Below, piece after piece: positions 5,801-29,611 of a stretch of 64,000 bases of DNA. A model generated the notes under the pieces. It was not told the DNA's origin. It ran no database searches and was given only the letters and a program-made list of their open reading frames with translations. Numbering within the stretch: position 1 is the first letter of the stretch; each line of letters starts with the position of its first letter. The position numbers and the translations under genes are program-made. The stretch is from an uncultured Oscillospiraceae bacterium (GTDB lineage Bacteria; Bacillota; Clostridia; Oscillospirales; JAAYXM01): the NCBI GenBank assembly GCA_934446465.1, contig CAKSEF010000002.1:2083-66082 (forward strand). Reading direction: 5' to 3'.

Positions 5801-6268
5801 TGCTATTCTCCTTTTCTGTTGTCAAGTACATTAAAACACATCTTATGGATTTTTTTCGCATTATCGTACATTTATCATAAACTGTGGGTCGATAACTTTA
5901 TCTGTCAGTGTATCCTTCATATACATATAAACGTTATACAGAGCAAGAAGATTCCATGCTTCCAAAGTATCCTGACTGCGCTGTACAAGGTTTACCGGCT
6001 CATAAACGCCACGAGGCCGAATAAGCTCAATATCGTTGCCGTGAAGCCCGCCGATCTAACCGCTTGCAGCAGGATCTGATTCGTTTGCGAAAGCACGGAG
6101 TTTATCCTACGGGGATTTACGATATTGCGCGCCGGTATATAACGGACGGCAACCGGGCGACAGAAGCCGCCGCTGTCTGCGGTTCCGGCGGCTGTTCATT
6201 CCTTTGCCGCGCATACGTAAAAAGTATGTCTCTGTTCTGTTATTAAAAATAATTTCAAGGAGATAAAA

Positions 6269-6490
6269 ATGCGAATTATTATAGATGCAGACGGGGATCT
6301 CGGTGTTGATGTTTCCGTTTCGGCCGCAAAAAATTACGGGCTTTAAGTTCGTATTCTCTGTGATACGACACACATTTGATAAAGACGGTGCGGAAACTCA
6401 TATTTTGTCGCAAGAGACCTCCGGCACCACGGGAAATATTGAAACTGTGCGCCTGTGAACACAGATTAGCATCTGAAATCACCATACCCC
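6269..6490 (+). pseudogene. Decayed YaiI/YqxD (DUF188, UPF0178) family gene
   Basis: AAGGAG RBS, then ATG and MRIIIDADGD (family start is M.I.VDADACP), with a stop after 25 codons. Shifted frames still read FSVIRHTFDKDGAETHILSQE, similar to the family core. There are several stops and frameshifts. Confidence 0.4.
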
Positions 6491-6577
6491 TAAAAAATAC
6501 AGTTCATTATATGGGCAACTAGGTGAAATATAAGAAAACAGCTTGTTTTTCATGACTCACACGCGGCTGCACTTCCT

Positions 6578-6679: not shown

Positions 6680-9600
6680 ATGAAAGGGAAAATGAAGCGT
6701 TTACTTGGCGCACTGCTTTCTGTTGCTGTGTGTGTATCACTGTTTCCGTCTGTAACCTTTGCGGTTGAGCCGACAACACCGGTGATAAGCTTTGATTTTG
6801 GCGCGGCAGGATACACGGGTGTGGCAGGGCAGACGGGAACTTCGGAGATCGGGTATGAGACGCTTAAAATCTTTGGTGACCCGGAAGGAGAAATAAATCC
6901 CACATGGTCAAAAGCAGACGCACCGCAGTGGGTTGTTGACGGTCATGCCCGCGCAACGAATATTGCGCTTACCACGGTTGAAAGCGGGAATAAGCAGGCA
7001 AACGCGCTGTATTGGTCTGCGTTTGGTACGCGGGCATATCAGAACGGTGTCGCAACAAATACACATGCTGTGGCAATAAGACTTAAAATCGACAAGCCCG
7101 GAACATACATTCCCGAGCTTACATACCACGCGCGCCCGGATTTGTGCATATTTGATATTTATCTTGTGCCGGCCAACTCCGAAATCATGACACCTGCGAA
7201 TAAAGGCTATGTAACGATCCACCAAACTAAAGGAGAAAACAACGCAAACTTATTAAATCGGGTCATAAACAATGCGGCCGCTTATAAGCTCGGAACTCTT
7301 GATATGTATGCGAAAGAAGCGGGAAGAGTTTCCACTTATCTCATAGGAGAGCACGCATTGAATGCGTTCACCGTTACAGAAGAAACCAAAGGAGAATATT
7401 ATCTGTTCTTCCGTACCAACGGCGTAAATGATATCTTGAAGAAAGAATACGGTAGCGGTAGCGGCGCTGAGATTAACGCGAATCTCTTTTCACTGAAGCT
7501 TTATAACAAAGCGGATGTCGCGGTTCCTGCGCTCGCTTCGGCAACACTTTCGCTTGAAAGCACAACTATGACAGAGGGTGAGAGTGTACTCCCGAAACTT
7601 ACGCTTTTCCTTGAAAACGGAGACAACCCAAGTGCCGAAATGCTTTCGGGATACGAGATAAAATACGAAAGCAACAATCCTACGGTTGCTTCGGTAAATG
7701 AAAATAGCGGCGAAATTACGGCACTCAAAACCGGAAACGCCACAATCACAGTAACAGAGACCAAGTCCGGCGTAGCGGGCAAGTTGGACATCACAGTTGC
7801 GGGAAAGCCTTATCTTGAACGCTTACAGCCGAAATGGGAAAACTTCGTTCTTTTTGCGAATGACGACAAAAACTCCACTGCAGATCTTGGCATTCTTGCG
7901 GTGATGTCAAACGGCAAGAATATTGTTCCGGATGAGTATAAAATCACATACATAAGCGCAGACGAGAACATAGTTACCGTGGACAAAGGAACTATAACAG
8001 CCGTAGGCGTTGGAAAAACAACTGTTACCGCATCGGCAACAAACGAAAACGGCGAGCCGGTAAGTGTTACGGTAAACGCAGAAGTGCGCGGAGAGCTTGA
8101 TGGACTTATATACAACTTCAATGCAGCTTCCTACGGCAAAGACAAAGAAATTGCAATGGCTGATTTAACAAAGCTCGGATATGCCGAAAACGGCTCTGAC
8201 CCTTGGAAGGTCTTAAGCGGGGCAAACACCGTTTATTGGTTGTCTGTAACGGCTGATGAGAAAGTTGACCATCCATACGGCGCAAATTCTGCAACTAACG
8301 TTCTTGCATGGGGGATATGGGGATATCGCGCTGCAAGATATACAGGCGCCGAGATGAACAAGGAAGAAGGAACTTTTGAGGGTGGAACATACTCGGCACG
8401 TCAGGATGCGGCGGTAGCTGCGCTTATAAATATTACAAGAGCAGGTACGCTTGTTCCGGCAATATCATATGAGGCACGCAACACACTTTCGATTTTTGAC
8501 ACATATCTTATTCCTAAAACGGTTGTTGATGCAAGCTCTCATCCTGACCTTTCTGTCGGAACGGAAATCGCAAAGCTTCTCAGCTCAATAGACAAGGAAA
8601 AATATTTGATTGCAAAACACGATATGTACGACGGTTCACTTGAAGAGCAAGTTACGATTAACAAGCTTGATCGTTTTGGAAATATCGAGATAACCGAGAC
8701 GGGCGAGTATTATCTTATCTGGCAGGTGAACGGCATTAACGAAGCCTTGCAGGGGCCGGAAAACTTTACTTATCTAAACAACAACGTAAACTACAAACAT
8801 ACTATTTACGTAAACATTCATTCTTTCGGACTTTATCCTCTGCCGAAGACCGAGCTTTCTTCAACCGGTGCGCATACGGAAACGGAAGAGGTGTTTGAGG
8901 GCGACATCGTGCGGCTCATTGCAACGCCGGAGCTTGCAGACGGAAAAACGGTAAACACACCTGCAATTATAAGCACATTTACTTCTCTTGATGAAGAAAA
9001 AGCAACGATAAACGGCGAATATCTCATTGCAAAAAAAGCAGGAACCGTTAAAGTCAAGGTTGATTCACGCATCAGCGGAAGCGAGGACGTTGTAACTGAA
9101 TATGTTGATATCGAAATTCTCCCCGAAAGCATAACAGACATCTCCGTTACTGCCGGCGGCAGTAAAAATATCCGACTTACGGACAAGAAGAATGATACCG
9201 TTCCGCTTTTTGTTACGCCTATAAGCAACCTCGGAAACAAACTTCCGACAGAAGAAATGATATTTACCGCAAACGCTCTCACTCCTGAGGTTGCAGACAT
9301 TATAAACGGAGATACAATCCTTCCCGTTACTGAGGGTGAGGCTAAATTCAATGTTATCGTAACAATAGGAGAAAGAACTATCGAACGCGAAGCAACGCTT
9401 CTTGTCGTAAAGGGCAAGAGCCGCGCATCGTACATGACAAAAGAAAAAGCAGAAGCCGCGCGCGAAAACATCAAGAAATACAATTGGGCGAAAAAGGAAG
9501 CAGACGGCGCAATAGCGCAGGCAGACAGATTTGTGGACAACTTGGATATTCTCTATAACCTTATAGCTTCCGAGGGTATTCCGCGAGGAATAGATGTTGG

Positions 9601-12600
9601 TGCCGTATCTGACCCGAATCTCGGATTTTGCCGCTTCTGTGGCGTGAAGATTTCCGCAAAATACGGTTCACCGCCATGGGTTGTCAATGCGATTTCCCGT
9701 CCGTGGAAGATTCAGTGTCCGGATTGCAAGCGGCTTTTCCCGTCAAATGATTTTAAAAGCTTTTACGAGCTTGGGCTTAACGAATACCGCGAATTTGAGC
9801 GTTCCCGCGCATTGGCACGACACCATGCGCTTATTCACCACGGCGATGCATATGCCGTTTGTGATTGTACACCACCGGCGGATGAATGGACAAACGAATG
9901 GTATTCATACTACGGATACGGTGATGAGAATGGATATCTCTATAACGCCCTTTACAAAAATGTTGACCTTTCAAAGGTGGATACATTAAATGCAAATCTG
10001 AGATTGCGCCCGGGAGAGACTCAGGAAACGTGGGGCGTTGATGACGGATACGGTTACGTTCCGCGAAAGGAAGACGGAACAGCATATCAAGCCGGCTCGC
10101 GCGAAGAGCGACATACATATATCGCGGAATATCTCCACTACGGTATATGGCGCGGCGGCGCGGTTGTAAACGCAATCCGCTATTGCTCGGATGCTTACTT
10201 CTATACCGGTAATATAAAGTACGGAAGAGTTGCGGCAATTCTTCTTGACCGCACGGCAGATTTTTACCGCGACTTTGACCGCTCGCACTGGGGTAACTGG
10301 GTTAATAACTCCGACGGAGGTTCGGGACTGGGAAAGATACTCGGTAACATCTGGGAAGGTACGAATATGAAGACATTCTTCGCCGCTTATGATAAGGTGT
10401 TCGAGTGTTATGACGATCCGTTTGTCGTTGAGTATTTGAGCAAAAAGTCAAAAGAAATAAAGATGAACTACGCGAAGAACACACCGTCGCAGATCAGAAC
10501 AAACATTGAGGACGGAATTCTGCGCGGCGCACTTGAAGCACTTCCCGGCTGCTTTATCTCCGGTAACTTTGGATACCCTCAGAGTGCAAATGCAATGGCA
10601 GCGGTAGTTCTCGATACTATGCCCGATACCAAATACTGGCTTGATTATCTTATGGCACCGGGCTGGTCGCGTTCCGCTCCGAGTCTCGGCGGCGGAATAA
10701 ATGCACAGCTTGTAAATGATGTTGATGCAGACGGTCAGGGAAATGAGGGCTCGAAATATAACATTGACTGGCATACAACACTCATCGGTATACAGGAATA
10801 TCTTAACGGTTATGATGCTTATGTTGCGGCAAACCTTTACAATAATCCGAAGTTTGTAAAGATGTTTTATTCCAACATCCCGCTTGTTACGGGTAACCAC
10901 TCTGCGAACATCGGTGATACGTTCACTACTATGAGTAAAGACCAGTGGTACAATAAGAATCAGCTTGTTATGGCTGTTAAGTACTTTGATGATCCGCGCT
11001 TTGCACAGTTGCTTTATCTTGTAAACGGTAAGACATCCGAAGGACTGCGTTATGACATATACGAAAGAGACCCGGAGCGCCTTGCGGACGAAGTTCAGGC
11101 AATTATTGACAGGCTGGGCGAGATATCGCTTGACTCTGAGGTTATGACAAACTTCGGATATGCAATATTGCGCGACGGTAATAATTACTCTGATTCTCTC
11201 ACTCCGACGGCAAAGGATACAACGAGAAATGTGTGGATGTACTTCGGAACAAGTGCCGGTCATGCCCACAAAGATACGCTTAATCTCGGTATGACGGCAT
11301 TCGGTCTTGAATATCTCCCGGATCTTGGTTATCCGGAGGAAACATCATATACACCTAACCGTCTTCAGTGGGTAGGTACGACGCTTTCGCACAATACTGT
11401 TACGGTTAACGAACAGGCAGTTAAATCTCTGGATGAACCGAGAGGAGAGTCTCTGCACTTTGACCACAACGAAACAATTCAGCTTATGGATGTTTCCGCA
11501 CCGTATGTGAGCGAGGAAACGGAGGAATACCGCAGAAGTGTTATAACCGTCCATGTTGATGACGACAATTCGTACGCAGTTGATTTCTTCCGCGTTCTCG
11601 GGGGAGATACTCACCTCTATTCTTTTCATGCCGCATCAAATGAGATAGCAAAGACAACGGGACTTGATTTCACGCTCACAGAGGACGAGAACGGAAACTA
11701 TATTTCCGGTTCTCAACTTGACGAAAACGGCAATTACAAAGGCACATATGCCGGACGTGACGCAAAGTATATTAAGGATGAGGTAACGGGAGCGGTTCGC
11801 GCATATACGGAGGATGCAAGCTTGAACGATAACGAGGTCATCCTTGAGGCTGAGTGGGGGAAGGATCCAAATTCACCAAACGAGTGGTTCTACAATACGA
11901 TTTTCCCACGCGGATACACATGGCTGAAAAACGTTGATCGCGACATCGAACCTGAGAATAAGGTTGAGGTCGATTTCAAAATAAAAGACTTCAATAAGCA
12001 CCTAAGAGACGGCTCTAACCTTCATTTGTATATGACGGTGCTCAACTCAGGAAATATAGCGAAAGGTGCAGATGCTGAAATTTCGATTGCTGACGGATTG
12101 CCGCCGGATAAGTCCGGAAACAAGAATATCGATAAATTGAAGTATGTTCTTATTAAAAATCGGGGAGAGAATCTTGACACAACATTCACTACTGTTCTTG
12201 AACCATACCGCAAGACGCGTTATATCAAGTCAGTAGACGAGCTTCCGATGACGGTTACAGGCGGTGAGGAACAGGCCGGCGATTCCAGCCGCGCTGTAAG
12301 AGTTGAGCATACAAGCGGCAGAGTTGACTATATCCTTTACGCGACCAATACCAACGTAACTTATGAAATAACGCTTAACGATGAAAGTAAGCTATCGTTC
12401 CGAGGCTTTGTGGGCGTATATACCGTGCAGAACGGAGTAATTACCTATAAATATCTCCACGATGGAGATATTCTCGGCGGAGAGTATGGAAAAGCATCAA
12501 TAGATGGTATTGTTTCCAAGTTTACCGATACGCTTGAACTTAAAAACTACATCTGGATTACGCCGAAAGCGCCTCTTTCTGATGATGAGCTTGCACTTCT

Positions 12601-13774
12601 CAGCGGTAAATACATATTTGTAAACAACGGCACAGAAAACAGAGGCGGAGCATGGCGCATCAAGGCGGCAGAGCGCGACGGAAACGATATTAAGCTTGAC
12701 GTAGGGGATGTTACGACAATCCGCAGATTCAAGGATGCAATTGACGAGGAGGCAGGCTTTAAATACACTATAGCAAAAAATCAGTCTGCGAGAATTCCGC
12801 TGACAACAATAGTAGATAACGATCCCGTGTTTGCACCGATAAGAGACAACCTTACGACAAATGCCGGAAGCACAATAGCAGTTACTGTCAGCGCCGCAAG
12901 TCCGGATACGGGAAACGCATCCGGTATAAGATACGTCGGCGAGACTATTCCGAGCGGTGCAAGAATAGATGCGCAGACCGGCGTATTCACGTGGAAGCCG
13001 GACAACTCACAAGTCGGAACAAGCCATGTTGCGATAACGGCAATTGACGATTACGGCAGGCAGAGTACAGCTCACTTCTATATTAAAGTTTATGGTTCCA
13101 CAACAGGCGGATCTGCAACAGACAGTGCGGAAAATCCGTCGGATGGCAGAGACGACAACAGCGGCGGCTCCGCACCTGCACCCGATAAGGAAGATACCAA
13201 TGCGGGGGACGGAGGTTCCGACGCCCACGACAAAATGCAATTCACAGACCTTTCCAACCACGCGTGGGCAGCAGATGCAATTAACGCTCTTGCCGCAGAC
13301 GGCATAATCCGTGGAACATCGGAAACAACATTTTCGCCTGCAGCCAACATTACGCGTGCGGACTTTGTACTGTTGCTTGTTCGTGCATTCAAGTTGACAT
13401 CGGATAACACGGAAAATTTCGCGGATGTTCAGGCTTCGGACTACTTTGCGTCTGAGATTGCAATAGCACGCAACAACGGGATTATCAGCGGAATAGGCGA
13501 AAATAAATTCGCACCTCGCAATTTCATCACCCGTCAGGATATGATGGTAATAGTATACCGCGTTATGCAGAAGCTCGGTGCAGAATTCGGCATTTATGAC
13601 AAACCGGAATATCCCGATTTCACCACCGTTGCCGATTACGCGCGTGTCGGGGTATCCGCGCTCATAGTCACCGGCCTTGTAAACGGTAAGGGCGGCAAAA
13701 TCGCGCCCACAGACTACACCACCCGTGCAGAGGTTGCGGTGCTCATCAAACGCATATTGGAACACATAAAATAA
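6680..13774 (+). CDS. Giant cell-wall-anchored heparinase II/III-like polysaccharide lyase family protein (2364 aa)
   Basis: RBS AAGGGGGG and signal peptide ...VTFA. The unannotated module occurs twice (aa ~36-275 and ~475-720), separated by Big_2-like Ig repeats (SVNENSGEITALKTGNATITV). The heparinase II/III-like region has an N-terminal helical part (NIKKYNWAKKEADGAI...) and a C-terminal signature (SAGHAHKDTLNLGMTAFGLEYLPDLGYPE...TLSHNTVTVNEQ). After that come a putative Ig/cadherin-like domain (GVFTWKPDNSQVGTSHVAITAIDDYG) and a low-complexity linker. Three SLH domains end the protein (13235-13771: FTDLSNHAWAADAINALAADGIIRG...). Confidence 0.9.
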   Translation: MKGKMKRLLGALLSVAVCVSLFPSVTFAVEPTTPVISFDFGAAGYTGVAGQTGTSEIGYETLKIFGDPEGEINPTWSKADAPQWVVDGHARATNIALTTVESGNKQANALYWSAFGTRAYQNGVATNTHAVAIRLKIDKPGTYIPELTYHARPDLCIFDIYLVPANSEIMTPANKGYVTIHQTKGENNANLLNRVINNAAAYKLGTLDMYAKEAGRVSTYLIGEHALNAFTVTEETKGEYYLFFRTNGVNDILKKEYGSGSGAEINANLFSLKLYNKADVAVPALASATLSLESTTMTEGESVLPKLTLFLENGDNPSAEMLSGYEIKYESNNPTVASVNENSGEITALKTGNATITVTETKSGVAGKLDITVAGKPYLERLQPKWENFVLFANDDKNSTADLGILAVMSNGKNIVPDEYKITYISADENIVTVDKGTITAVGVGKTTVTASATNENGEPVSVTVNAEVRGELDGLIYNFNAASYGKDKEIAMADLTKLGYAENGSDPWKVLSGANTVYWLSVTADEKVDHPYGANSATNVLAWGIWGYRAARYTGAEMNKEEGTFEGGTYSARQDAAVAALINITRAGTLVPAISYEARNTLSIFDTYLIPKTVVDASSHPDLSVGTEIAKLLSSIDKEKYLIAKHDMYDGSLEEQVTINKLDRFGNIEITETGEYYLIWQVNGINEALQGPENFTYLNNNVNYKHTIYVNIHSFGLYPLPKTELSSTGAHTETEEVFEGDIVRLIATPELADGKTVNTPAIISTFTSLDEEKATINGEYLIAKKAGTVKVKVDSRISGSEDVVTEYVDIEILPESITDISVTAGGSKNIRLTDKKNDTVPLFVTPISNLGNKLPTEEMIFTANALTPEVADIINGDTILPVTEGEAKFNVIVTIGERTIEREATLLVVKGKSRASYMTKEKAEAARENIKKYNWAKKEADGAIAQADRFVDNLDILYNLIASEGIPRGIDVGAVSDPNLGFCRFCGVKISAKYGSPPWVVNAISRPWKIQCPDCKRLFPSNDFKSFYELGLNEYREFERSRALARHHALIHHGDAYAVCDCTPPADEWTNEWYSYYGYGDENGYLYNALYKNVDLSKVDTLNANLRLRPGETQETWGVDDGYGYVPRKEDGTAYQAGSREERHTYIAEYLHYGIWRGGAVVNAIRYCSDAYFYTGNIKYGRVAAILLDRTADFYRDFDRSHWGNWVNNSDGGSGLGKILGNIWEGTNMKTFFAAYDKVFECYDDPFVVEYLSKKSKEIKMNYAKNTPSQIRTNIEDGILRGALEALPGCFISGNFGYPQSANAMAAVVLDTMPDTKYWLDYLMAPGWSRSAPSLGGGINAQLVNDVDADGQGNEGSKYNIDWHTTLIGIQEYLNGYDAYVAANLYNNPKFVKMFYSNIPLVTGNHSANIGDTFTTMSKDQWYNKNQLVMAVKYFDDPRFAQLLYLVNGKTSEGLRYDIYERDPERLADEVQAIIDRLGEISLDSEVMTNFGYAILRDGNNYSDSLTPTAKDTTRNVWMYFGTSAGHAHKDTLNLGMTAFGLEYLPDLGYPEETSYTPNRLQWVGTTLSHNTVTVNEQAVKSLDEPRGESLHFDHNETIQLMDVSAPYVSEETEEYRRSVITVHVDDDNSYAVDFFRVLGGDTHLYSFHAASNEIAKTTGLDFTLTEDENGNYISGSQLDENGNYKGTYAGRDAKYIKDEVTGAVRAYTEDASLNDNEVILEAEWGKDPNSPNEWFYNTIFPRGYTWLKNVDRDIEPENKVEVDFKIKDFNKHLRDGSNLHLYMTVLNSGNIAKGADAEISIADGLPPDKSGNKNIDKLKYVLIKNRGENLDTTFTTVLEPYRKTRYIKSVDELPMTVTGGEEQAGDSSRAVRVEHTSGRVDYILYATNTNVTYEITLNDESKLSFRGFVGVYTVQNGVITYKYLHDGDILGGEYGKASIDGIVSKFTDTLELKNYIWITPKAPLSDDELALLSGKYIFVNNGTENRGGAWRIKAAERDGNDIKLDVGDVTTIRRFKDAIDEEAGFKYTIAKNQSARIPLTTIVDNDPVFAPIRDNLTTNAGSTIAVTVSAASPDTGNASGIRYVGETIPSGARIDAQTGVFTWKPDNSQVGTSHVAITAIDDYGRQSTAHFYIKVYGSTTGGSATDSAENPSDGRDDNSGGSAPAPDKEDTNAGDGGSDAHDKMQFTDLSNHAWAADAINALAADGIIRGTSETTFSPAANITRADFVLLLVRAFKLTSDNTENFADVQASDYFASEIAIARNNGIISGIGENKFAPRNFITRQDMMVIVYRVMQKLGAEFGIYDKPEYPDFTTVADYARVGVSALIVTGLVNGKGGKIAPTDYTTRAEVAVLIKRILEHIK
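6790..7454 (+). repeat. Copy 2 of the 665-bp perfect direct repeat (partner 2126-2790)
   Basis: See the copy at 2126-2790. The offset is 4664 bp in direct orientation and the repeats bracket the GH20 gene. Confidence 0.9.
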
Positions 13775-19966: not shown

Positions 19967-20820
19967 ATGGGTAAAGCATTAAAGGTAAAGAATGTGGCAA
20001 AGGAATTTCTCAAAGAAAGAACGGGTTATACTGCGCAAGATTCGTTAATAAGCACGAAAAAGGCAAGAAAGATACTTCAATACACTTCCGAAAGCACGTA
20101 ATTGGTTGGAAAAAGCGAAATATAAAGATAAGTATGGCGAGATATCGGATCCGTCAGATAAGACAGCAGACAATTGGTGATTATCGGATAAACAATATCG
20201 TATGCGATTTGGCTCCGGACACACGGAGTAATTATCGCGAACGGTATGAACACAATATTCAACTGCTTATCGGCAATACGGAATTAGCAGATTGACCCAT
20301 TGCGTTGTAAAATGGTCCTAAATCAGATGAATGCAGATTATGCAGGCTCAACTAAAAGGCAAGCATACATTACGATGTGGACAATGTTAAAGTCAGCGCT
20401 TATGAATGACTTAATTACAAAGTATCCTATGAATGGAGTTTGATATACAAATCCGGTTCATGCAGTTAATGATATTAAGTTCCTTACAACGGAAGAACAA
20501 AGAGCGTAAAACATTCGCAAAACTATAATCAATATGCGTTGACTTTTGAAACCGGACCGAGAACAGGAAAAACGAGAAAGTTTTATATGTGTGATTTGGT
20601 ATTAGTCAATTGGCGTATCGGTGAACCCGCGAAAACAGTTCTTATGATACACACTTGTATAAGTTATGCGACGAGGCGTAAATCAAGAGGTTTTGTATGC
20701 ACGAACTTTTCCATACATATGAGCGCTGCTGAAAGCGGTATGCAGCCGAAGGCGTTACAAAAACTGCATGGTCATGCAGGCATTAAAACCACGACGGACA
20801 GATATGTCCCTGTCGGATGA
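19967..20820 (+). pseudogene. Tyrosine recombinase (phage-type integrase) pseudogene
   Basis: Fragments in all three frames read WLEKAKYKDKYG, NYRERYEHNIQLLIGNTELAD, GSTKRQAYITMWTMLKSALMNDLITKYPMNGV, KFLTTEEQ, LTFETGPRTG and the C-terminal AAESGMQPKALQKLHGHAGIKTTTDRYV (LGH..I.TT..Y motif with the catalytic Tyr). There are many stops and frameshifts and the catalytic core is shortened. Confidence 0.7.
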
Positions 20821-20930: not shown

Positions 20931-22025
20931 ATGAAATTAGGTATAGTAGGTTTGCCGAATGTCGGCAAGAGTACTCTTTTTAACGCAATAACAAACGCAG
21001 GTGCGGAGGCGGCAAACTATCCGTTCTGCACAATCGACCCGAATGTCGGAATGGTCAATGTACCCGATGCTCGGGTGGATACTCTTTCAAAAATGTACAA
21101 CACGCAGAAAACAACTTACGCAACAGTTGAATTTGTTGATATAGCCGGATTGGTAAAAGGTGCGGCGTCGGGCGAGGGTCTCGGCAACAAATTTCTTTCG
21201 CATATACGCGCGGTGGACGCGATAGTTCATGTGGTAAGATGCTTTGAGGACGAAAACATAGTTCATGTTGACGGAAAGATAGACCCCATACGCGATGTTG
21301 AAACTATAAATTACGAACTGATTCTTTCCGATATGGAGATGCTGGAGCGACGCCTTGACAGGACGCGCAAAGCCGCAAAGGGTGACAAGGGGCTCTTGCC
21401 TGAAATCGATTTGCTTGAGCGTCTGATGAAACATCTCGAAAACGGTAACAGCGCAAGAAGCTTCGAGGCAAACGATGAGGAGAGCGCGATTATATCAACG
21501 GCAGAGCTTCTCACCAACAAGCCTGTCATCTATGCCGCAAACCTGTCCGAAACCGATTTTTCCGACGGCATTGACAAAAACGAGAATTACAAAAAACTCA
21601 AATCCTATGCGGAAGCCGAGGGTTCGCAGATAATTCCGATATGTGCAAAACTCGAAGCGGAGATATTGGAGCTTGACGAGGAGGAACGCGAAATGTTCCT
21701 CGCAGAGCTTGGGCTCTCGCAGTCGGGGCTCGACAGAATGATTCAGGCGTGCTACTCGCTTTTGGGTCTTATATCGTATCTTACCGCAGGGACGCCCGAG
21801 GTGCGCGCATGGACGATTAAAAAGGGAACGAAAGCACCGCAGGCCGCGGGAAAGATACACAGCGATTTTGAACGCGGATTTATACGGGCGGAGGTTATCC
21901 GATACAATGACCTCGTAGAGTGCGGTTCTGCCGCTGCCGCGCGTGAACGCGGACTCATGCGCAGTGAAGGCAAGGACTACGTAGTTGAAGACGGTGATGT
22001 AATTTTGTTTAGATTCAACGTCTGA
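20931..22025 (+). CDS. ychF: Redox-regulated ATPase YchF
   Basis: 364 aa with the P-loop [13 protein letters not shown] and the characteristic C-terminus [17 protein letters not shown]. Confidence 0.95.
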
Positions 22026-22046: not shown

Positions 22047-22087
22047 GCACCTTCGGGCTAAAATATGCTCGGAGGTGCTTTTAATTG
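22047..22087 (+). terminator. ychF terminator hairpin whose 3' arm contains the RBS of the next gene
   Basis: The stem GCACCTTCGGGC / GCTCGGAGGTGC (two G-U pairs) is followed by TTTTAATT. The GGAGGTG inside the 3' arm lies 6 nt upstream of the TTG start at 22085. Confidence 0.55.
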
Positions 22088-22855
22088 AAGGGATATTCTA
22101 ATTTTTTAAAAAAAGCAGCACGGGGCGGTTTCTATATCGTCTTGTTCCTGTGCTTATCGGCAATAGGAATTTCAAGCTATGTGATGCACAAAGCAAAGGA
22201 CTCGGCGGAAAAGGTTAAGGAGCAGATTGATGTACAGAGTGCGCTCACCATTCCGTTTCCGAAAGAAGACGAAATGTTGTATGATTCGGGAAAAGCGGTA
22301 GAGGAGAAGACACCGGCAAAGAAGAACACAGAGACAAAGCAGGTGCAGACAGAGAAAAAGACCGAACAGAAAACAACCGCAAAAACCACCAAAAAAGCGG
22401 CAGGCACTCCCGCCGTAAGTACCGCGGGGAACGCAAAAAGTACGTATACAATGGCGGTAAGCGGAGCGGTAATGTCGCCGTTTTCGGGCGATGAGCTTGT
22501 CAAGAGCAAGACCATGGGTGATTGGCGCGTACATTCCGGAGTAGATATCAAAGCTAACGTGGGAACGGACGTAAAATGTATTGCCGACGGTACGGTAATA
22601 AGCACGGAAAACGATACAATGATGGGAAATACCGTAAAAATAGAACATTCGGGCGGTATTGTCAGCATATATTCAAACCTCGATGAAAAGTTCGCCGTTA
22701 AAAAAGGTGAAACCGTAAAAGCAGGCGCCGTTATAGGCAAAGTCGGAGAGAGTGCACTTGCGGAATGTATGGAGGAAAAGCATCTTCATCTTGAGGTTAC
22801 AAAAAACGGGAAATGTATTGACCCGCTCTCCCTGTTTCCGGAAGGCAAGGAATAG
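22085..22855 (+). CDS. Membrane-anchored M23 family metallopeptidase (LytM domain)
   Basis: 256 aa with an N-terminal TM helix and a K/T/E-rich linker. The LytM motifs are HSGVDI, GNTVKIEHSGGIVSIYSNL and HLHLEV. Confidence 0.85.
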   Translation: MKGYSNFLKKAARGGFYIVLFLCLSAIGISSYVMHKAKDSAEKVKEQIDVQSALTIPFPKEDEMLYDSGKAVEEKTPAKKNTETKQVQTEKKTEQKTTAKTTKKAAGTPAVSTAGNAKSTYTMAVSGAVMSPFSGDELVKSKTMGDWRVHSGVDIKANVGTDVKCIADGTVISTENDTMMGNTVKIEHSGGIVSIYSNLDEKFAVKKGETVKAGAVIGKVGESALAECMEEKHLHLEVTKNGKCIDPLSLFPEGKE

Positions 22856-22923
22856 CATATTCAATTATTTTGTCAAAACGGAGGCAGAAAACACATTAAG
22901 CATATAGTATAATCTACAGTGTC

Positions 22924-22957
22924 AGGACGTGTGCATCAGCACACGTCCTTATTTTTA
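22924..22957 (+). terminator. Intrinsic terminator at the left boundary of the phage-like module
   Basis: The perfect 10-bp stem AGGACGTGTG / CACACGTCCT has a 6-nt loop and is followed by TATTTTTA. Confidence 0.6.
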
Positions 22958-22975
22958 GGAAAGGAGGTGTGTACA

Positions 22976-23254
22976 TTGGCGGAAAAAAACGCAACTATAC
23001 GCGGTGAGCTCTTAAAGATTATCCGCAGAAAGGTTGACCCGTCATATGCGGAAAATCTTGGGATTCTTGACGGCAGGAAAAAGAGCCTCAGCGTGTGCCG
23101 TGCGATAGCCTTGGCGCAGGTGAAAAAGGGACTCGAAGGCGACCTGAAGGCCGCGGAGTTCATCGAGAATGTGCTTTCCGACGATGTCGGGGAAGAAAAT
23201 AACGGCGCGGAGTTCAGAGTGGAACTGAAGGTGGTCGGAGATGATAGAGCTTAG
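22976..23254 (+). CDS. Small terminase-like protein (short, no obvious HTH)
   Basis: The TTG start lies 8 nt after AGGAGGTG, whereas the track start at 22919 lies inside the terminator. The gene overlaps the terL start by 14 nt. The helical segment ...SVCRAIALAQVKKGLEGDLKAAEFIENV resembles the C-terminal part of some TerS proteins. The call rests mainly on position. Confidence 0.35.
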   Translation: MAEKNATIRGELLKIIRRKVDPSYAENLGILDGRKKSLSVCRAIALAQVKKGLEGDLKAAEFIENVLSDDVGEENNGAEFRVELKVVGDDRA

Positions 23255-24557
23255 CATAACTCCGCGTCAGCGCGCTTTTATAAGCGCATCAGCGGGTGAA
23301 GTTCTTTTCGGAGGTGCGGCGGGCGGCGGCAAATCTTACGGACAGGTGATAGATGCGTTCCTGTTTTCGCTCAAATATCCGCGCTCAAAACAGCTTATAT
23401 TGCGAAGGACATTCCCGGAACTCGATAAGTCGATAATAAGAACGGTTCTCGGACTTTACCCGCAGTCGGTGTTTTCGTATAAGGCAGCGCGCCACGAGGG
23501 GATATTCAAAAACGGCTCAATCATAGATTTCGGGTACTGCGACAATGAACGCGATGTATACCGATATCAGTCGGCGGAATACGATGTCATCCGCTTTGAC
23601 GAGCTTACTCACTTTACCGAAGAAATGTATGTCTATCTCATTTCGCGCGTCCGCGGGACGAACGGATATCCAAAGCAGATAAAAAGCACGACAAATCCCG
23701 GCGGTATCGGGCACGGTTGGGTAAAGGCACGGTTTATCGATATCGGAGAGCCCGACTGCGAACATCTCGGACGCATTTTCATTCCGTCGCGTGTGTCGGA
23801 CAACGTCTTTCTAATGAAGAACGACCCCGGGTATAAGGCACGGCTTGAAATGCTGTCAAAAAAAGACCGCGAGGCGCTACTCTACGGAAACTGGGACATT
23901 TTTGACGGTCAGTATTTCACGGAATGGCGTCGCGAAATTCACGTGATAAGACCGTTTGAAATTCAGCCCGAGTGGCGCAGGTATTTCGTTATGGACTACG
24001 GCCTTGATATGCTCGCCGGGTATTGGATTGCACTGGATATGTACGGCAGGGCATACGTGTACCGCGAGGTTTATCGGAGCGGACTGATAATCTCGGAGGC
24101 CGCAGCAATGATACGCGAGTGCGGAAAGGGTGATAAGGTACATGCAAATATCGCCCCGCCCGACCTTTGGAACCGCCGTCAGGACACAGGTAAAAGCGCG
24201 GCGGAAATATTTGCCGAAAACGGGGTGCCGCTTGTCCGCGCGAATAACGACAGGGTCCAGGGGTGGTATAACCTTAAGGAATGGCTCGCGCCGTTCCGCG
24301 ACGAAACGGGTAAAATGTGTGCAAATCTCCGCATATTTTCAAACTGCGTGAATTTGATACGCACGCTTCCGAGCGTCAATATCGACAGCAAAAACCCGAA
24401 TGACGTTGCGGGAAGTCCGCACGAACTCACCCATGCCCCGGATGCAATACGTTATTTCGTGGCAGGGAGACCTGCTCCCGCAGTCCCTTCCGTTGTGCAG
24501 GACGACGATGCTCCGGAATTTGACAGGCAGGTCGAGGATATGCTCGGCTTTTGCTGA
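23241..24557 (+). CDS. terL: Phage terminase large subunit
   Basis: 438 aa with Walker A FGGAAGGGKS, Walker B/coupling YDVIRFDELTHF and a C-terminal nuclease half (FVMDYGLD...). Confidence 0.85.
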   Translation: MIELSITPRQRAFISASAGEVLFGGAAGGGKSYGQVIDAFLFSLKYPRSKQLILRRTFPELDKSIIRTVLGLYPQSVFSYKAARHEGIFKNGSIIDFGYCDNERDVYRYQSAEYDVIRFDELTHFTEEMYVYLISRVRGTNGYPKQIKSTTNPGGIGHGWVKARFIDIGEPDCEHLGRIFIPSRVSDNVFLMKNDPGYKARLEMLSKKDREALLYGNWDIFDGQYFTEWRREIHVIRPFEIQPEWRRYFVMDYGLDMLAGYWIALDMYGRAYVYREVYRSGLIISEAAAMIRECGKGDKVHANIAPPDLWNRRQDTGKSAAEIFAENGVPLVRANNDRVQGWYNLKEWLAPFRDETGKMCANLRIFSNCVNLIRTLPSVNIDSKNPNDVAGSPHELTHAPDAIRYFVAGRPAPAVPSVVQDDDAPEFDRQVEDMLGFC

Positions 24558-24573
24558 TTGTGAAAGGAGAATA

Positions 24574-24747
24574 ATGAATATAACTGTATCAAGAACAGAT
24601 AACTTGGAACTTTTAAAACAAATCCGCGCGAGGGAAAAGGAAATAGCCGTACTTGACCTGCGGATTAATGCGCTCGAGCGCGAGCAAAACGCAATACTGC
24701 GGAATATAGACACAATATTTGAAATGCTGGACGGCGCGGAGGTGTAA
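24574..24747 (+). CDS. Hypothetical 57-aa coiled-coil protein
   Basis: RBS AAAGGAGA precedes the ATG. The sequence is MNITVSRTDNLELLKQIRAREKEIAVLDLRINALEREQNAILRNIDTIFEMLDGAEV. The stop is 1 nt before the next start. Confidence 0.5.
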   Translation: MNITVSRTDNLELLKQIRAREKEIAVLDLRINALEREQNAILRNIDTIFEMLDGAEV

Positions 24748-24748
24748 A

Positions 24749-26815
24749 ATGGCAAGAAAAACACGGCTTTCATCGGTGAGCCCGAACAGCGTATACACAA
24801 AACGCTATGAGAAATTCCGAGGCGTTGACTTCTCCAAGGACGAGTCAAAGGTAGACGATGTCCACTCCCCGTCGGGAAAAAACCTGATATCAGACACTGG
24901 CGGTTTTCCCGAAAAGAGAGTGGGCTGGCGAAAAATACACTCCTTCGGAAACAAAATTAACGGCATATACGGCTTTGAAGGCGAAAACGGTTCGTACCTG
25001 ATAGTACATTCGGGAACAGGGCTCTTTAAATATGAAAACGGCGAAAGCACGGAGCTACTCAGCGGGATAACGGATAAAATCTCATGCGGAAAGTATTTCA
25101 AAGGGAAGATCTGCATACTCACGGGCGGAGAGTATATTGTGTACGACGGAGAGACCGCCTCAAAGGTTTCCGCAAGAGACGACGTTTACGCCCCGATAAC
25201 GCACATTTCGCGACAGCCAATGGCTATCGGCATTGCCAATTCACCGTCCTCCGACGATACGTTCAAGGCATGGAACAATGAGGGAAGTCTTTTGGACAGA
25301 AACTCAAAGGAGGTATACATGGGAAAGACTCCCGATGAGGTAATGATTAACCTCGTATCTCCGAGAAGAAGAAACTGCTTTGAGATTAAAGGGAGCTCGC
25401 GGGATGCAATAATTCTCGACAGTACGATTGACGCGGGAACGCGCGTCGTTATGAAATGTATCCTCACGGGGAAAACACTCTTCGATGTTGTGTACGACGG
25501 CAGCAAATATCAAAAATTTTGTACAAGAGATAACGGCTCAGAGGGCGTAAACCTTGACGGACTGAACATTATGGAACTCGGTGCGAATAATTTGCCTGTC
25601 AGTATAATAATAGGGAACTCGGAATACAACAAGGCGGGCTTTATAATATGCCAGATCAAACAGGGCATGAACGATATCTACGCATATACGGAAGGCGTCG
25701 ACAATTTCTCGGTGGAGTTTTCTCATACCGTAGAGGGATATGCCGACAGAATAGACAAATGCACTGTAATGGATGTCTTTGAAAACCGCATATTCTTTTC
25801 GGGAAACCCCGACTATCCGAATACGGACTGGTGCTCGGGCGTAAACGACCCAATGTTTATTCCCGATATAAACTACACGGAAATAGGAGTGGACTCCACA
25901 AAAATAGTCGGGTATCTGCGCACGGGAAGCGAACAGGCAATACTAAAGGAAGACGGCGAGGACGCGACAATTTATATGCGTTCGAGCACATCGCAGACGG
26001 ATGGCAGGGTGATTTTTCCGATAAGACAGGGCGTGTCAGGTATAGGTGCTGTGGCAGAACGGTCAGTATGCACCGTTCTCGACGACCCCGTTTATCTTTC
26101 GCGCAACGGCGTGTATGCGGTTGCGACACAGGATATATCAAAGGAACGCTCCCTTAACCCGCGCTCGACCCGCATAAATAACAGACTTCTCAGAGAAAAC
26201 GGACTTGAAAATGCACACATCTGCGAATGGGACGGAAAACTGCTTCTTGCATTGAACGGAGTCTGCTATGTCGCAGACACTTCACAAAAGGTCTATACGT
26301 CCAACTTCTCGAACGCCTTTGAGTATGAATGGTACTATTGGACCAATATCCCCGCACGGACTTTCTTTGAATGTAAAGGGGAACTGTTCTTCGGAACGGA
26401 GTCGGGATTTTTGTGTGAGTTTAATTCCGATATGCTCAATGAGAACGGAGAACTGAAAGCGGAAGCATATTCGGATGACGGACAGGCAATAGTTGCGGAA
26501 TGGTCAACCAACCTCTCCGACGACGGCGACTTCATGAGAGAAAAGACGCTCCAGAAAATAGGATCGGGCGTTTTTCTGCGGGGAAGGCAAACCTACACGG
26601 GAATTTCTGTATACGTCAGAACGGACAAGGAGAAAACAGAGCAGGTAAGCTGTGCGTCATTCTCCGGAAAAGGCTATATGGCAGTGCCCCTCAATACGCG
26701 CATTAAAAAATACGGAGCAATACAGGTCATATGCCGAAACGATAAGGTAAATGAGCCGTTCGGCATATGCGGAATAACGCGCAGATTTACCTGCGGACAC
26801 GCAATAAAGAAGTAA
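24749..26815 (+). CDS. Hypothetical 688-aa phage-module protein (beta-rich, propeller-like by eye)
   Basis: The ATG at 24749 follows GGAGGTG. I recognise no family. Repeated strand-turn motifs occur (NGIYGFEGENGSYLIVHSGTGLFKYENG, GKICILTGGEYIVYDG, GELFFGTESGFLCEF). Confidence 0.6.
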   Translation: MARKTRLSSVSPNSVYTKRYEKFRGVDFSKDESKVDDVHSPSGKNLISDTGGFPEKRVGWRKIHSFGNKINGIYGFEGENGSYLIVHSGTGLFKYENGESTELLSGITDKISCGKYFKGKICILTGGEYIVYDGETASKVSARDDVYAPITHISRQPMAIGIANSPSSDDTFKAWNNEGSLLDRNSKEVYMGKTPDEVMINLVSPRRRNCFEIKGSSRDAIILDSTIDAGTRVVMKCILTGKTLFDVVYDGSKYQKFCTRDNGSEGVNLDGLNIMELGANNLPVSIIIGNSEYNKAGFIICQIKQGMNDIYAYTEGVDNFSVEFSHTVEGYADRIDKCTVMDVFENRIFFSGNPDYPNTDWCSGVNDPMFIPDINYTEIGVDSTKIVGYLRTGSEQAILKEDGEDATIYMRSSTSQTDGRVIFPIRQGVSGIGAVAERSVCTVLDDPVYLSRNGVYAVATQDISKERSLNPRSTRINNRLLRENGLENAHICEWDGKLLLALNGVCYVADTSQKVYTSNFSNAFEYEWYYWTNIPARTFFECKGELFFGTESGFLCEFNSDMLNENGELKAEAYSDDGQAIVAEWSTNLSDDGDFMREKTLQKIGSGVFLRGRQTYTGISVYVRTDKEKTEQVSCASFSGKGYMAVPLNTRIKKYGAIQVICRNDKVNEPFGICGITRRFTCGHAIKK

Positions 26816-26827
26816 GGAGGCTAATAT

Positions 26828-27856
26828 ATGGCAGGACAAAAGGTAACTAAGGTATCTTACCGAACAAGAGACGGAAAAAACGAAACGGGATACATCATAA
26901 ACGGAAAAACATATAAGGACTCGGCGGGAAAAACGCGAATTGACGTCGGTTCAACAGTCGACACCGCGGGCGGAACATACACACTGACCGCAAACGGCAG
27001 TGTTAAGACTCCGTGGAGTGTGCGCGATGATTTAATAAGGGGTTACGAGGAAGCACAGAAAAATCTCGACAGCAGCTACAATCAGAAAAGGCGCGCAATC
27101 AAACTCGCAACGGATAATGCGCTGTATCAGATTTCAAGAAGCAAGTCTGCCGCAGAATCGGGATATGCCGACGCCAACAGAAGCGCGTATCAGGCGTATA
27201 TAAATGCGTCAAACCCCTACGGCGCGGCTGAGGAACAGCGCGCAAGAGTGGGACTTTCAAATTCGGGATATGCTGAAAGCTCAAAAATGAAGCTCGCCGA
27301 CACATACCAGCAGGCCCTAAACAACAACGCACGGGAGAAGAATGAATACCTTGCCGAGCTTGAGGACGCACGGCGCAATGCAATATATAACGGTGAGATT
27401 GAGGCGGCAAACGCAATAAGCGAGTATGCAAAGCTTGTGTACCGGCACGGTATACAGGCTGCGGAAAAAATTGCCGAGCAGTCAAACTATGCCTATAAAA
27501 CGGGTATTGAAGCAAACGATTCATTGGAAGAGCGCAGGCGTTACAGCGCGGAACAGGCGCGACTTGACAGAAAGGAAAAAACCGACCGCGAAAACGAACT
27601 GTGGGAACGCAATTTCAAAACGAATCAGGAAAATTTCGACAGGCAGTATAAAAACTCACAGCTCGCAATGTCAAGAGCGAGACTCGCAAGGAGCGGGTCG
27701 TCATCATCCAAGAAGGATGACGATAAATGGGAAAAGGCAAGAAAGCTCGCTTCACTCGGCATAGCTTCCGAGGAGATAGCTGCTGAGCTCGGCGTTACAT
27801 TGGAACAGCTCCGCGACGGTATATACGGAAGCAGAAAGAGAAGGTCGGCAACGTGA
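26828..27856 (+). CDS. Hypothetical 342-aa protein (small beta N-terminus, long Q/A/E/R-rich helical region, basic tail)
   Basis: RBS AAGGAGG. I recognise no family. The composition resembles phage scaffold or internal/ejection proteins, but that is only an inference. Confidence 0.55.
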   Translation: MAGQKVTKVSYRTRDGKNETGYIINGKTYKDSAGKTRIDVGSTVDTAGGTYTLTANGSVKTPWSVRDDLIRGYEEAQKNLDSSYNQKRRAIKLATDNALYQISRSKSAAESGYADANRSAYQAYINASNPYGAAEEQRARVGLSNSGYAESSKMKLADTYQQALNNNAREKNEYLAELEDARRNAIYNGEIEAANAISEYAKLVYRHGIQAAEKIAEQSNYAYKTGIEANDSLEERRRYSAEQARLDRKEKTDRENELWERNFKTNQENFDRQYKNSQLAMSRARLARSGSSSSKKDDDKWEKARKLASLGIASEEIAAELGVTLEQLRDGIYGSRKRRSAT

Positions 27857-28053
27857 GCATAGCTTTTTTGATTCTCGGGGCGGTGATATTTGCCGCCGGA
27901 GTTATGTTTGAAAGATTCGACCTCTCATCTCTGAATTACGGAAACGGACGAAAATATGAAAACATACCTAAGAATATAAACCTCACAAAACAGTGGGAGA
28001 ACCTTCTCGGATATGACGGAACGGCAAAGGAGGAAGAAAATGACAGTGAATAA
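27853..28053 (+). CDS. Hypothetical 66-aa single-pass membrane protein
   Basis: The GTG start overlaps the previous stop (GTGA). The TM helix is IAFLILGAVIFAAGVMF and the C-terminus is acidic. Confidence 0.4.
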   Translation: MSIAFLILGAVIFAAGVMFERFDLSSLNYGNGRKYENIPKNINLTKQWENLLGYDGTAKEEENDSE

Positions 28054-29557
28054 GGCGCCGGCCGATATTTGGCGCGAGTATAAGGAATGTGTTGCGTATA
28101 ACCGCTCGATAAATCTCTATGAAAACGTAAAGAAAAACGAAAACTTTTATATCGGCAAACAGTGGGAGGGACTCCGTGCGCCCGACCTCGCAAAGCCTGT
28201 CATCAATATACTCAGACGTGTGGTAACTTACTTCATATCCATGATAGTTGCCGACGATATAGGCGTATCGTTCACGCCGTTTACGGACACGCCCGAGCTC
28301 CGCCAAAAAGCGGATATCTGGGCGGGTGAGGCGGAAAAAGTAATAGAGCTTGCCTGCGTAAAGGAAAAATCACGCGAAATAATCAGAAACGCCGCGGTAG
28401 ACGGCGACGGGATAATGTATTTCTATTTTGACCCGAACGCCGAAACGGGTCAGCTCGCAAAGGGAAGAATAGAGTGCGAGGTGCTGGGAAACACAAGTGT
28501 CCTGTTCGCTAACCCCTATTCCTCCGACTTGCAGAAACAGCCGTATATAATAATCGAAATGCGGAAAGAAATAGAAAGCGTGCGCGATGAGGCAATAGAG
28601 TTCGGAATGAGTGAGGAGGAAGCCGAGGAAATAACGCCCGATAACGCGGAGGAATCCTTCGGGACACACTCGGGCTACGGTGACCGGCTCGTTACCGTAC
28701 TTATCAAATTCTGGCGCGAAAACGGAACTGTCCACGCGGTAAAGACGACGAAAAAGCATATCATACGAGAGGAATGGGACACGGGATATCACAGATATCC
28801 GCTGGCGTGCATGATGTGGGAGCGGGCAAAAAACTCCTGCCGAGGAATAAGCGCACTCGAAGCAATGATTCCGAATCAGATAAGCATAAACCAGCTCTAT
28901 GCAATGGCGATTCACTCGGTTAAGATGTGCGCTTTCCCGAAAATGATATATGACGCAACAAAAATTTCGGCATGGTCAAATAAGGTCGGACAGGCAATAG
29001 GCGTAATCGGAAACCCGAACGAGGCGGTTGCGTCGTCGTTCCGCGGGGCGGATATGTCGGGGCAGGTGCTTGAACTTATATCGCGCCTTATACAGGATAC
29101 AGTCGACTTTATGGGTGCGTCGGACTCGGCACTCGGGACGGTAAAACCGAACAATACATCGGCAATCATTGCAACGCAGAAAACAACGACAATGCCGCTC
29201 GAACTCCAAAAGCTTGAATACCAGCGCTTTACGGAGGACTACGTAAGAGTAATTATCGACATGATTGCAACAGACTACGGAATCCGCGAGACTGCATTAA
29301 CGGCGGACGGTGAGAAAACCACCGTATGCTACGACTTCTCCGCGGGAGAAACTGCCGGGCTTCAGATGCGCATAGACATCGGGTCGTCAGCGTATTGGAG
29401 CGAGCTTATGCAGGTCGAGACAATGGACAACCTTTTCTCAAAGGGAATTATAACGGATGTTTTGACATATCTTGAAAGCATACCCGAAAAATACCTCAGG
29501 AACAAGGAAAAGATTATTGCAAAAATAAAGAACGGCACAATGCAAAACGCCGAATAG
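28040..29557 (+). CDS. Phage portal protein (SPP1 gp6-like type)
   Basis: The ATG at 28040 follows AAGGAGGAAG. 505 aa with the N-terminal motif NENFYIGKQWEG and a length and overall pattern typical of portals. Confidence 0.7.
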   Translation: MTVNKAPADIWREYKECVAYNRSINLYENVKKNENFYIGKQWEGLRAPDLAKPVINILRRVVTYFISMIVADDIGVSFTPFTDTPELRQKADIWAGEAEKVIELACVKEKSREIIRNAAVDGDGIMYFYFDPNAETGQLAKGRIECEVLGNTSVLFANPYSSDLQKQPYIIIEMRKEIESVRDEAIEFGMSEEEAEEITPDNAEESFGTHSGYGDRLVTVLIKFWRENGTVHAVKTTKKHIIREEWDTGYHRYPLACMMWERAKNSCRGISALEAMIPNQISINQLYAMAIHSVKMCAFPKMIYDATKISAWSNKVGQAIGVIGNPNEAVASSFRGADMSGQVLELISRLIQDTVDFMGASDSALGTVKPNNTSAIIATQKTTTMPLELQKLEYQRFTEDYVRVIIDMIATDYGIRETALTADGEKTTVCYDFSAGETAGLQMRIDIGSSAYWSELMQVETMDNLFSKGIITDVLTYLESIPEKYLRNKEKIIAKIKNGTMQNAE

Positions 29558-29564
29558 AATTTAT

Positions 29565-29594
29565 GCACGGAGAAATTTTCTCCGTGCATTTTTT
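29565..29594 (+). terminator. Intrinsic terminator at the right boundary of the phage-like module
   Basis: The perfect 10-bp stem GCACGGAGAA / TTCTCCGTGC has a 3-nt loop and is followed by ATTTTTTA. Confidence 0.75.
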
Positions 29595-29611
29595 ACTCTC
29601 TGTAAAAATAA

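Follow-up and report, generated by a model that had tools for sequence, protein, structure and literature searches.

Positions 22976-29557 of the DNA analysed here (the window: 64,000 nucleotides of contig CAKSEF010000002.1, from an uncultured Oscillospiraceae bacterium) hold seven phage-like genes, among them those for a large terminase subunit (TerL) and a portal protein. We propose, with a probability of about 0.62, that this block is one part, locus I, of a domesticated two-locus system, derived from a podovirus and resembling a gene transfer agent (GTA), which resides in the chromosomes of a clade of gut Oscillospiraceae. The proposal is based on the following observations: (i) the structural and packaging genes are fixed in the chromosome and retained across species; (ii) they are under purifying selection; (iii) Pfam and PHROG scans find no replication, integration or lysogeny-control genes in locus I or in locus II of contig L247 (numbers prefixed L are our handles for loci and phage contigs); and (iv) a full set of head, tail, packaging and lysis genes is seen in the assemblies of three relatives that hold both loci. 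Core genes directly border both loci. The block is real, conserved and selected, and the "elsewhere" of its capsids has been located in relatives.

A search with p4, which we assign to the tail nozzle, returned about 90 full-length homologues with 43-74% identity; the scan covered one genome per species, and 80 of the 94 nozzle relatives found were kept. Named sources of these homologues are metagenome-assembled genomes (MAGs) of Oscillospiraceae or Clostridia, some on contigs as long as 227 kb. About 20 species-level Oscillospiraceae genomes carry the block in the order ychF - M23 peptidase - p1 - TerL - (0-2.4 kb) - p4 - p5 - p6 - portal - (0-4.4 kb) - tsaE - tsaB - rpiB - proB, with both flanks seen in L004, L005, L015, L017 and L020, and the left flank in 13 loci. 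Amino acid identity to the window is 81-87% for ychF, 76-81% for TerL, 62-68% for the portal, 49-56% for p4 and 54-61% for tsaB. Three further strains of the window species (L255, L256 and L257, from ERZ4567920, ERZ27286970 and ERZ27287071) are colinear with it and 99.7-99.9% identical, with every open reading frame (ORF) intact. All three were recovered from metagenomes of the human gut, a Hadza/Nepal sample among them; the named source animals of the other carriers are ruminants (goat, sheep and water buffalo), as opposed to the human gut for the window species.

All conserved genes of the block are under purifying selection. Pairwise Nei-Gojobori ratios of nonsynonymous to synonymous substitution (dN/dS), calculated for pairs unsaturated at synonymous sites, are about 0.04 for TerL, 0.05-0.08 for the portal, 0.08-0.14 for p5, 0.11-0.15 for the p4 nozzle, 0.17-0.24 for p1 and about 0.21 for p6, similar to those of the flanking tsaB (0.10-0.17) and tsaE. 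The within-species ratio of nonsynonymous to synonymous polymorphism (pN/pS) is about 0.13.

The same genes occur in related, uncultured phages of the gut, about 33-37 kb in length. Proteins of these phages are 63-74% (TerL), 51-60% (portal) and 71-79% (capsid, against locus II) identical to those of the host loci. One phage lineage, C, is present whole in IMG/VR contig 3300031555_010914, where replication genes and a DUF1492 regulator are followed by TerS, scaffold, capsid, a 137-aa and an 84-aa protein, and then by nozzle, p5, a 2406-aa giant protein, portal, two small genes, fibre, TerL, holin and a CHAP lysin. Two further orders, TerL - portal - ... - capsid - nozzle and TerL - nozzle - x - portal, are found in other lineages. 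A comparison of every protein of the related phages with the window gave matches within 22900-29600 and nowhere else, and neither this comparison nor a PHROG scan revealed a capsid or scaffold gene in locus I or in the 64 kb.

The homologues of the phage C capsid protein, which one source labels "N4-gp56 family", include a clade of about 35 clusters, 351-353 aa in length, that is sister to the phage capsid proteins. On the contigs of the five clade members looked up, locus II forms a compact module, surrounded by called core genes in four of them. It comprises a scaffold-like protein of 167-231 aa, whose C-terminus is common to phage scaffolds; a major capsid protein of the N4-gp56 type (phrog_422, 6e-49); a 114-128-aa head protein homologous to the 137-aa head protein of the phage; a holin; a NAGPA+SH3 lysin; and, in at least three of the five copies, a 64-aa protein. 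Loci I and II do not overlap in gene content and jointly make up a full podovirus set with lysis genes, without the replication genes, regulator genes and giant protein of the phages. Both loci were found in assemblies JAZSOS01 (locus I, L010; locus II, L247), JAZTYJ01 (L016; L253) and ERZ27227494 (L005; L248).

The scaffold-like protein of locus II (L247 9462-9965; L248 9298-9978) keeps only the C-terminal part of the phage scaffolds, which measure 279-289 aa; by analogy with other GTAs, the shortening might alter capsid size. Two opposite-strand tRNA genes adjoin locus II in all three copies scanned with Rfam (L247 8871-9057; L248 8738-8925; L249 4833-5018), and this neighbourhood may mark a place where a prophage integrated long ago. 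No tRNA genes lie within the window.

The two loci are further connected by their control regions. In the window this region spans 22870-22957, between the stop codon of the M23 gene and p1, and contains the repeats TTGTCAAAA (22870-22878) and GAGGCAGAA (22881-22889) with an 11-nt period, followed after an 18-nt spacer by the -10 element TATAAT (22908-22913). Each of the 15 chromosomal loci of group A that hold both M23 and p1 has two or three TTG(G/T)CAAAA direct repeats at the same period, and the 18-nt distance from repeat to -10 recurs in the six copies checked by hand (L004, L005, L007, L016, L020 and the window). Group A loci have an extended -10 element, TGnTATAAT (TGGTATGAT in L008-L010); about 10 nt further on, a strong hairpin and its T-run precede the ribosome-binding site. 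The same operator opens locus II in L247, L248 and L249, the three copies that were read upstream of the module: it reads AAGTTGGCAAAAACTTGGCAAAA...GTGCTATAAT in L248, as in locus I of L005, and has 6-9 repeats in L247 and L249. No second operator of this kind was found in the 64 kb, and an operator-pattern scan of JGI metagenomes and IMG/VR returned two unrelated short contigs and a known locus I copy, with no further member of the regulon.

The leader hairpin is predicted at -19 to -34 kcal/mol (z -2.3 to -8.2) in 14 folded group A leaders, that of the window included; its stems differ in sequence among loci while pairing is kept. The leaders of L008-L010 were left out of the folding, and the hairpin is visible in their sequence. 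It looks like an intrinsic terminator, and could act as a terminator that needs antitermination, as a 5' stabiliser, or as the terminator of the upstream gene. An Rfam search of the leaders found nothing except the tRNAs beside locus II.

This layout is that of a phage late promoter. DUF1492 (LtrB) proteins are late activators in Gram-positive phages, are encoded just upstream of terS, and bind direct repeats of this kind, each Ltr activator being specific for its own sites (Quiles-Puchalt et al., PMC3753634). In Ltr-controlled late operons (RinA, ArpU, LtrA, LtrB and LtrC), the repeats lie directly upstream of the terS promoter (PMC3753634), and the related phages L087, L023, L018, L037 and L259 show exactly this arrangement, with the ltr gene just upstream of terS. 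In phage C the layout recurs in front of terS, down to the position of the hairpin, directly after a 143-aa gene (DUF1492, 1e-5; Sigma70_r4_2, 3e-4), and the operator of phage L087 (aTGGCAAAAAGTTGGCACAC...TGTGGTATAAT) is near-identical to that of the host and directly follows a DUF1492/Sigma70_r4 gene. The host loci likewise have 2-9 repeats at an 11-nt period directly upstream of the promoter in both loci, but the ltr gene is absent from the upstream position, where the M23 gene (locus I) or the tRNA genes (locus II) are found instead. The repeats differ among phages: TTGGCA in L087 (6230-6340); TGAGACA in L023 (6340-6460), L018 and L037; TGGACA in L259 (730-790); and ATGCAAA in L085 (about 5950-6010), with the layout kept in all but L085. 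Comparison of these sequences suggests that regulator and operator evolve together in the related phages. In L023, an element of about 100 nt (…AAAGCCTGCTTT..GAAAGAGGAGAGACCGCCG.TAAAGCGAAGCTT.TTGCG…) occurs at 6470-6560 and again at 7060-7170, on both sides of terS, and might be related to a packaging site.

The features of the window are collected in Table 1. The sequence-only reading of this DNA had described seven co-oriented, closely packed and uninterrupted ORFs between core genes, in a window devoid of capsid genes; the ORFs and their junctions are exactly as it gave them, neighbouring ORFs overlapping or lying at most 17 nt apart, Pfam identifies the flanking genes as it had, and the observation as a whole is confirmed. 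Of the two terminator hairpins that it took to bound the block, the right-hand one does end the operon, while the left-hand one lies downstream of the promoter, inside the 5' leader, and is not a simple boundary. It was correct in calling TerL complete, and the short TerS-like protein is conserved, the assignment to TerS itself being tentative. Its SPP1-type portal turned out to be of the P22/podovirus type, and its 3.5 kb of unknown genes to encode a predicted tail nozzle and two conserved phage proteins.

Table 1. Features of locus I and its surroundings, in window coordinates
Feature	Position	Strand	Basis
Operator and promoter	22870..22913	+	Direct repeats, 18-nt spacer, -10
Leader hairpin with T-run, between -10 and ribosome-binding site	22924..22957 (hairpin 22924-22949)	+	11 pairs, 7 of them G-C
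p1, TerS-like (92 aa), tentative	22976..23254	+	Weak profile matches and position
TerL, large terminase subunit (438 aa)	23241..24557	+	Pfam, PHROG
p3, helix-rich (57 aa), doubtful gene	24574..24747	+	ORF call; species-specific
p4, predicted podovirus tail nozzle/hub (688 aa), contains beta-propeller	24749..26815	+	PHROG, Foldseek on model
p5 (342 aa), long helices	26828..27856	+	Homologue after nozzle gene in phages
p6 (66 aa), transmembrane-like N-terminal segment	27853..28053	+	Homology, by eye
Portal, P22/podovirus type (505 aa)	28040..29557	+	PF16510, phrog_156
Bidirectional terminator-like hairpin closing the operon	29563..29594 (hairpin 29563-29589)	.	12 pairs, T-runs on both strands
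ychF	20931..22025		Pfam
M23 peptidase	22085..22855		Pfam
tsaE, tsaB, rpiB, proB	right flank		Pfam
ORF resembling the C-terminal end of the Phage_integrase family (93 aa)	20539..20817		Weak Phage_integrase match (E 0.008)
Surface protein (2364 aa)	6680..13774		SLH, Big_2, He_PIG and heparinase II/III-like domains

TerL matches Pfam Terminase_3 (1.7e-12) and phrog_979 (6.6e-49), and 18 of 18 orthologues have the Walker A, Walker B and nuclease motifs unchanged; it is 74% identical to the TerL of phage C. In one further copy of locus I (L029 5546-6849), TerL is split over two frames, by a frameshift or an assembly error. The portal matches PF16510 (2.3e-9) and phrog_156 (2.5e-22), and is 30% identical to Pagevirus portals annotated as "podovirus-type". 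p4 matches phrog_3287, "virion structural protein" (6e-30), and, over its C-terminal half, Pagevirus gp15; profile comparison with solved structures identifies beta-propeller repeats in it, and 100 columns are invariant over 28 orthologues. Its AlphaFold model, of moderate confidence (pLDDT 65), matches podophage tail-complex chains in Foldseek: VP1 (5e-11), Pa223, Sf6, GP4, SU10, the T7 tail complex (2e-8) and Kp9. We take these chains, from their length, to be nozzle/hub proteins (T7 gp12, Sf6 gp8), and p4 is, as judged by its modelled fold, a podovirus tail nozzle/hub protein.

The smaller proteins are less readily assigned. p1 is conserved in 18 loci (40-85% identity) and gives weak matches to DUF5681 (E 0.02) and phrog_2412 (3e-4), and to the C-terminal third of a phage Terminase_2-type TerS (hhalign E 0.004, probability 8.5%); Pfam, PHROG and hhalign recognise no DNA-binding domain in it, and we tentatively assign it as TerS-like from its position. 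A relation of p1 to the small proteins upstream of TerL in phages L038 and L089 was considered, and none was found. The p5 model starts with a small beta domain, continues in long helices and ends in a domain of three helices; it yielded no significant fold match, which leaves a role as tail needle unsupported. A homologue of p5 follows the nozzle gene in phage relatives, and p5 is absent from L005. p6 is conserved in 19 group A loci, with a KQWENLLGYDG motif and a hydrophobic N-terminal segment that resembles a membrane helix when judged by eye, and weak homologues lie directly upstream of the portal gene in related phages. Whether p3 is a real gene is doubtful: it is intact in the three other strains and has no homologue in any locus outside this species. 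Most other group A loci carry in the TerL-p4 gap a tail-fibre gene of 150-642 aa, unrelated to p3, which matches tail-fibre PHROGs and has an N-terminal domain, about 60 aa long, in common with the phage fibre protein. The genes after the portal in L004, L020 and L007 were considered as capsid or scaffold genes and rejected, there being no PHROG capsid matches; they are variable, and some are fibre-like.

We analyzed the relationship between host and phage copies using neighbour-joining trees, with relatives known from MAGs or metagenome contigs. The TerL genes of the chromosomal loci make up a single clade, sister to phage C, and so do their portal genes, to which phages L038, L060 and L031 are closest. 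The chromosomal nozzle clade is also monophyletic except for one phage nozzle nested within it (L085 10001-12046 / L165 12-1646), which is as similar to p4 of the window (56% identity) as orthologues are; gene exchange between the chromosomal locus and phage is therefore indicated.

Based on these observations, the system would work as follows. A matching activator, when present, would switch on transcription of loci I and II together, through control regions that both loci would have inherited from an ancestral phage; the activator could be a host gene missed by our search, or the LtrB of a related phage. Procapsids would assemble on the portal and be filled by the terminase in a headful manner, probably with host DNA and with little sequence preference, because p1 has no recognisable DNA-binding domain. 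The nozzle, p5 and the fibre would then close the particle, and the holin and lysin would release it. Co-expression, particle formation, packaging of host DNA and release are all inferred from this gene content.

Several points weigh against this proposal. The system is known here from its genes, from which particles, packaging and transfer are predicted. That the window genome has a locus II is inferred from relatives (3 of about 20), 64 kb of that genome being visible; one of the three assemblies with both loci, ERZ27227494, was assembled from a metagenome and is unbinned, and the binning of MAGs can itself go wrong. The window copy of the operator is partly degenerate: the spacing is kept, the second repeat is altered and the TG extension is missing. 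Locus I of the window species has no fibre gene. A hidden Markov model of the phage regulators finds none near either host locus or in the window. Module genes diverge in only moderate correlation with ychF (Spearman 0.43-0.47), and the ychF genes of L005 and L019 are 97% identical while their nozzles are 54% identical. Given such nozzle divergence despite near-identical ychF, alleles have therefore been exchanged at the locus; we reject strictly vertical inheritance in favour of vertical descent with allele exchange.

An explanation to which we give a low probability is that the loci form an interference or piracy module, switched on only through the LtrB-type activator of a related 36-kb phage that infects the cell or is induced in it, the host having no activator of its own. 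Host portal, terminase and nozzle would then compete with or poison phage assembly, lowering phage yield, redirecting capsids to host DNA, or both. In its strongest form, likewise improbable, the loci would be wired to the TTGGCA-type LtrB of co-circulating phages instead of to a host regulator, and would sabotage phage assembly while exporting host DNA; if true, the system would be a GTA acting as a phage-triggered "last-gasp" defence and gene-export device that swaps nozzle alleles with its phages. Several findings are consistent with this explanation: the near-identical operator of L087 next to its regulator gene, the differing repeats of other phages that go with their own regulators, the lack of a regulator gene near either host locus, and the faster turnover of module alleles relative to flanking genes. 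The repeats are, moreover, of the type bound by site-specific activators (PMC3753634), related phages share MAGs with locus I in four cases, and the nested phage nozzle implies that parts are compatible and exchanged. On the other hand, a pure decoy has no need of its own capsid, scaffold and lysis genes, and a host activator may have been missed, since the search for one with phage LtrB, which returned seven proteins, apparently all on phage-type contigs, was a word-index search without whole genomes. The explanation is also compatible with the GTA proposal rather than exclusive of it.

Less probable still is a killer particle of the PBSX kind, whose benefit would lie in killing competitors or lysing the producer, the packaged DNA being incidental and undelivered. 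Such particles are known to act by way of contractile or long tails, and no killing mechanism is known for a podovirus stub. The holin and lysin of locus II do recall the PBSX lysis cassette, of which XhlA is a member, as does the 64-aa protein after the lysin (L247 12617-12811; L248 12595-12789), which matches XhlA weakly (E 0.0095); fibre genes are also highly variable among species. The same possibility was raised by the authors of FpGTA for that element of Faecalibacterium prausnitzii (PMC12946183). The strong conservation of the catalytic residues of the terminase argues, however, that DNA packaging matters.

A prophage remnant, recently truncated and with its remaining genes not yet decayed, could be suspected from the missing capsid gene and from the weak, decayed-looking integrase fragment 2 kb upstream, but is highly improbable, since the same content occurs at the same site in species with saturated synonymous sites, the genes are intact with dN/dS far below 1, ychF and the M23 gene separate the fragment from the block, the gene tables read, those of relatives L004 and L005, list no integrase upstream of ychF, and in no relative does the block lie inside a complete prophage. 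There is neither neutral evolution, nor gene loss differing between strains, nor a deletion junction. The sequence-only reading had left a choice between a very recent truncation and a retained or satellite-like packaging unit using capsids encoded elsewhere, and had asked whether the site is conserved across strains, whether the block forms one end of a complete prophage in relatives, and what dN/dS is across orthologues. The block occupies one and the same site across about 20 species and in three strains, and was never found as the end of a complete prophage, with dN/dS of 0.04-0.24, which is not neutral; conserved position, purifying selection and the invariant TerL motifs together therefore exclude a recent truncation. 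The retained, domesticated unit is strengthened by a locus in relatives that has the capsid, scaffold and lysis genes and shares the operator, so that the block is not really an orphan; the suspected link to the integrase has lost its ground, and nothing suggests satellite-type mobility.

Known systems offer partial parallels to the proposed GTA-like system. Phage satellites (PICI, cf-PICI and PICMI) encode some virion or packaging functions, rely on others and respond to phage signals, and they are mobile, with an integrase, a replication module and att sites; such genes are not in or beside the block, and its site is fixed across species. RcGTA-type elements (Rhodobacter, Caulobacter and Bartonella) consist of domesticated structural and packaging genes that are vertically inherited, spread over several loci and co-regulated by the host, with a TerS lacking a DNA-binding domain. 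They are siphovirus-like, unrelated in sequence and controlled by regulators of the host such as CtrA and GafA, in contrast to the phage Ltr-late-type promoter found here, and the block is not a relative of RcGTA. The Pagevirus podophages of Bacillus megaterium (Page, Pony and Palmer) have the same podophage gene set, with the portal and gp15 similarities given above; they and the uncultured 33-37 kb phages are complete viruses with replication genes, regulators and a giant protein of 2000-2400 aa, which the host loci lack.

The closest known system, by analogy of gene content, is FpGTA (PMC12946183), which we compared by its published description (proteins RCH50844-RCH50852). Like loci I and II, it is chromosomal and podovirus-like, forms two operons, belongs to gut Oscillospirales, and has a TerS without a DNA-binding domain, a TerL, a portal, an N4-gp56-family capsid and a tail nozzle, with holin and lysin in the second operon (PMC12946183). 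An abundant FpGTA protein is annotated as "TolA" (PMC12946183), to which p5 might, as a guess by analogy, be the parallel. The partition differs: operon I of FpGTA holds TerS, TerL, portal, scaffold and capsid together and operon II the baseplate, fibre and lysis genes (PMC12946183), whereas here capsid and scaffold go with the lysis genes, and portal and nozzle with the terminase, so that locus I has no scaffold or capsid gene alongside TerS, TerL and portal. No Faecalibacterium genome occurs among the 80 of 94 nozzle relatives kept, and the available part of the published description of FpGTA contains no Ltr-type operator. DNA-filled FpGTA particles with about 9 kb of DNA (8.4-8.9 kb) were demonstrated by experiment (PMC12946183), as against the gene-level evidence presented here.

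GTA-like elements outside the Alphaproteobacteria are very rare, and the proposed system would add to a small class in Gram-positive gut bacteria, for which PMC12946183 names PBSX and FpGTA as the only two cases. According to the same paper, Oscillospiraceae chromosomal DNA is widely packaged in capsids of the human gut by genes of which most have yet to be identified, and one Oscillospiraceae chromosome is evenly packaged in 34.9-kb pieces by no identified agent, which we regard as a lead and not as evidence. The present finding supplies a two-locus gene set, a shared and recognisable operator, and carrier genomes from ruminant and human guts (including Hadza/Nepal). It also provides a testable link to phage late regulation, since an operator common to related phages opens the question of whether phages trigger host particle production.

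Two neighbouring genes deserve mention. The M23 peptidase between ychF and the operator diverges as fast as the module genes (51-58% amino acid identity), its synonymous sites being saturated in a pair where ychF has dS = 0.46. The related phages have no homologue of this gene, which may or may not be a possible part of the particle system. Further upstream, the window encodes the large multidomain surface protein listed in Table 1.

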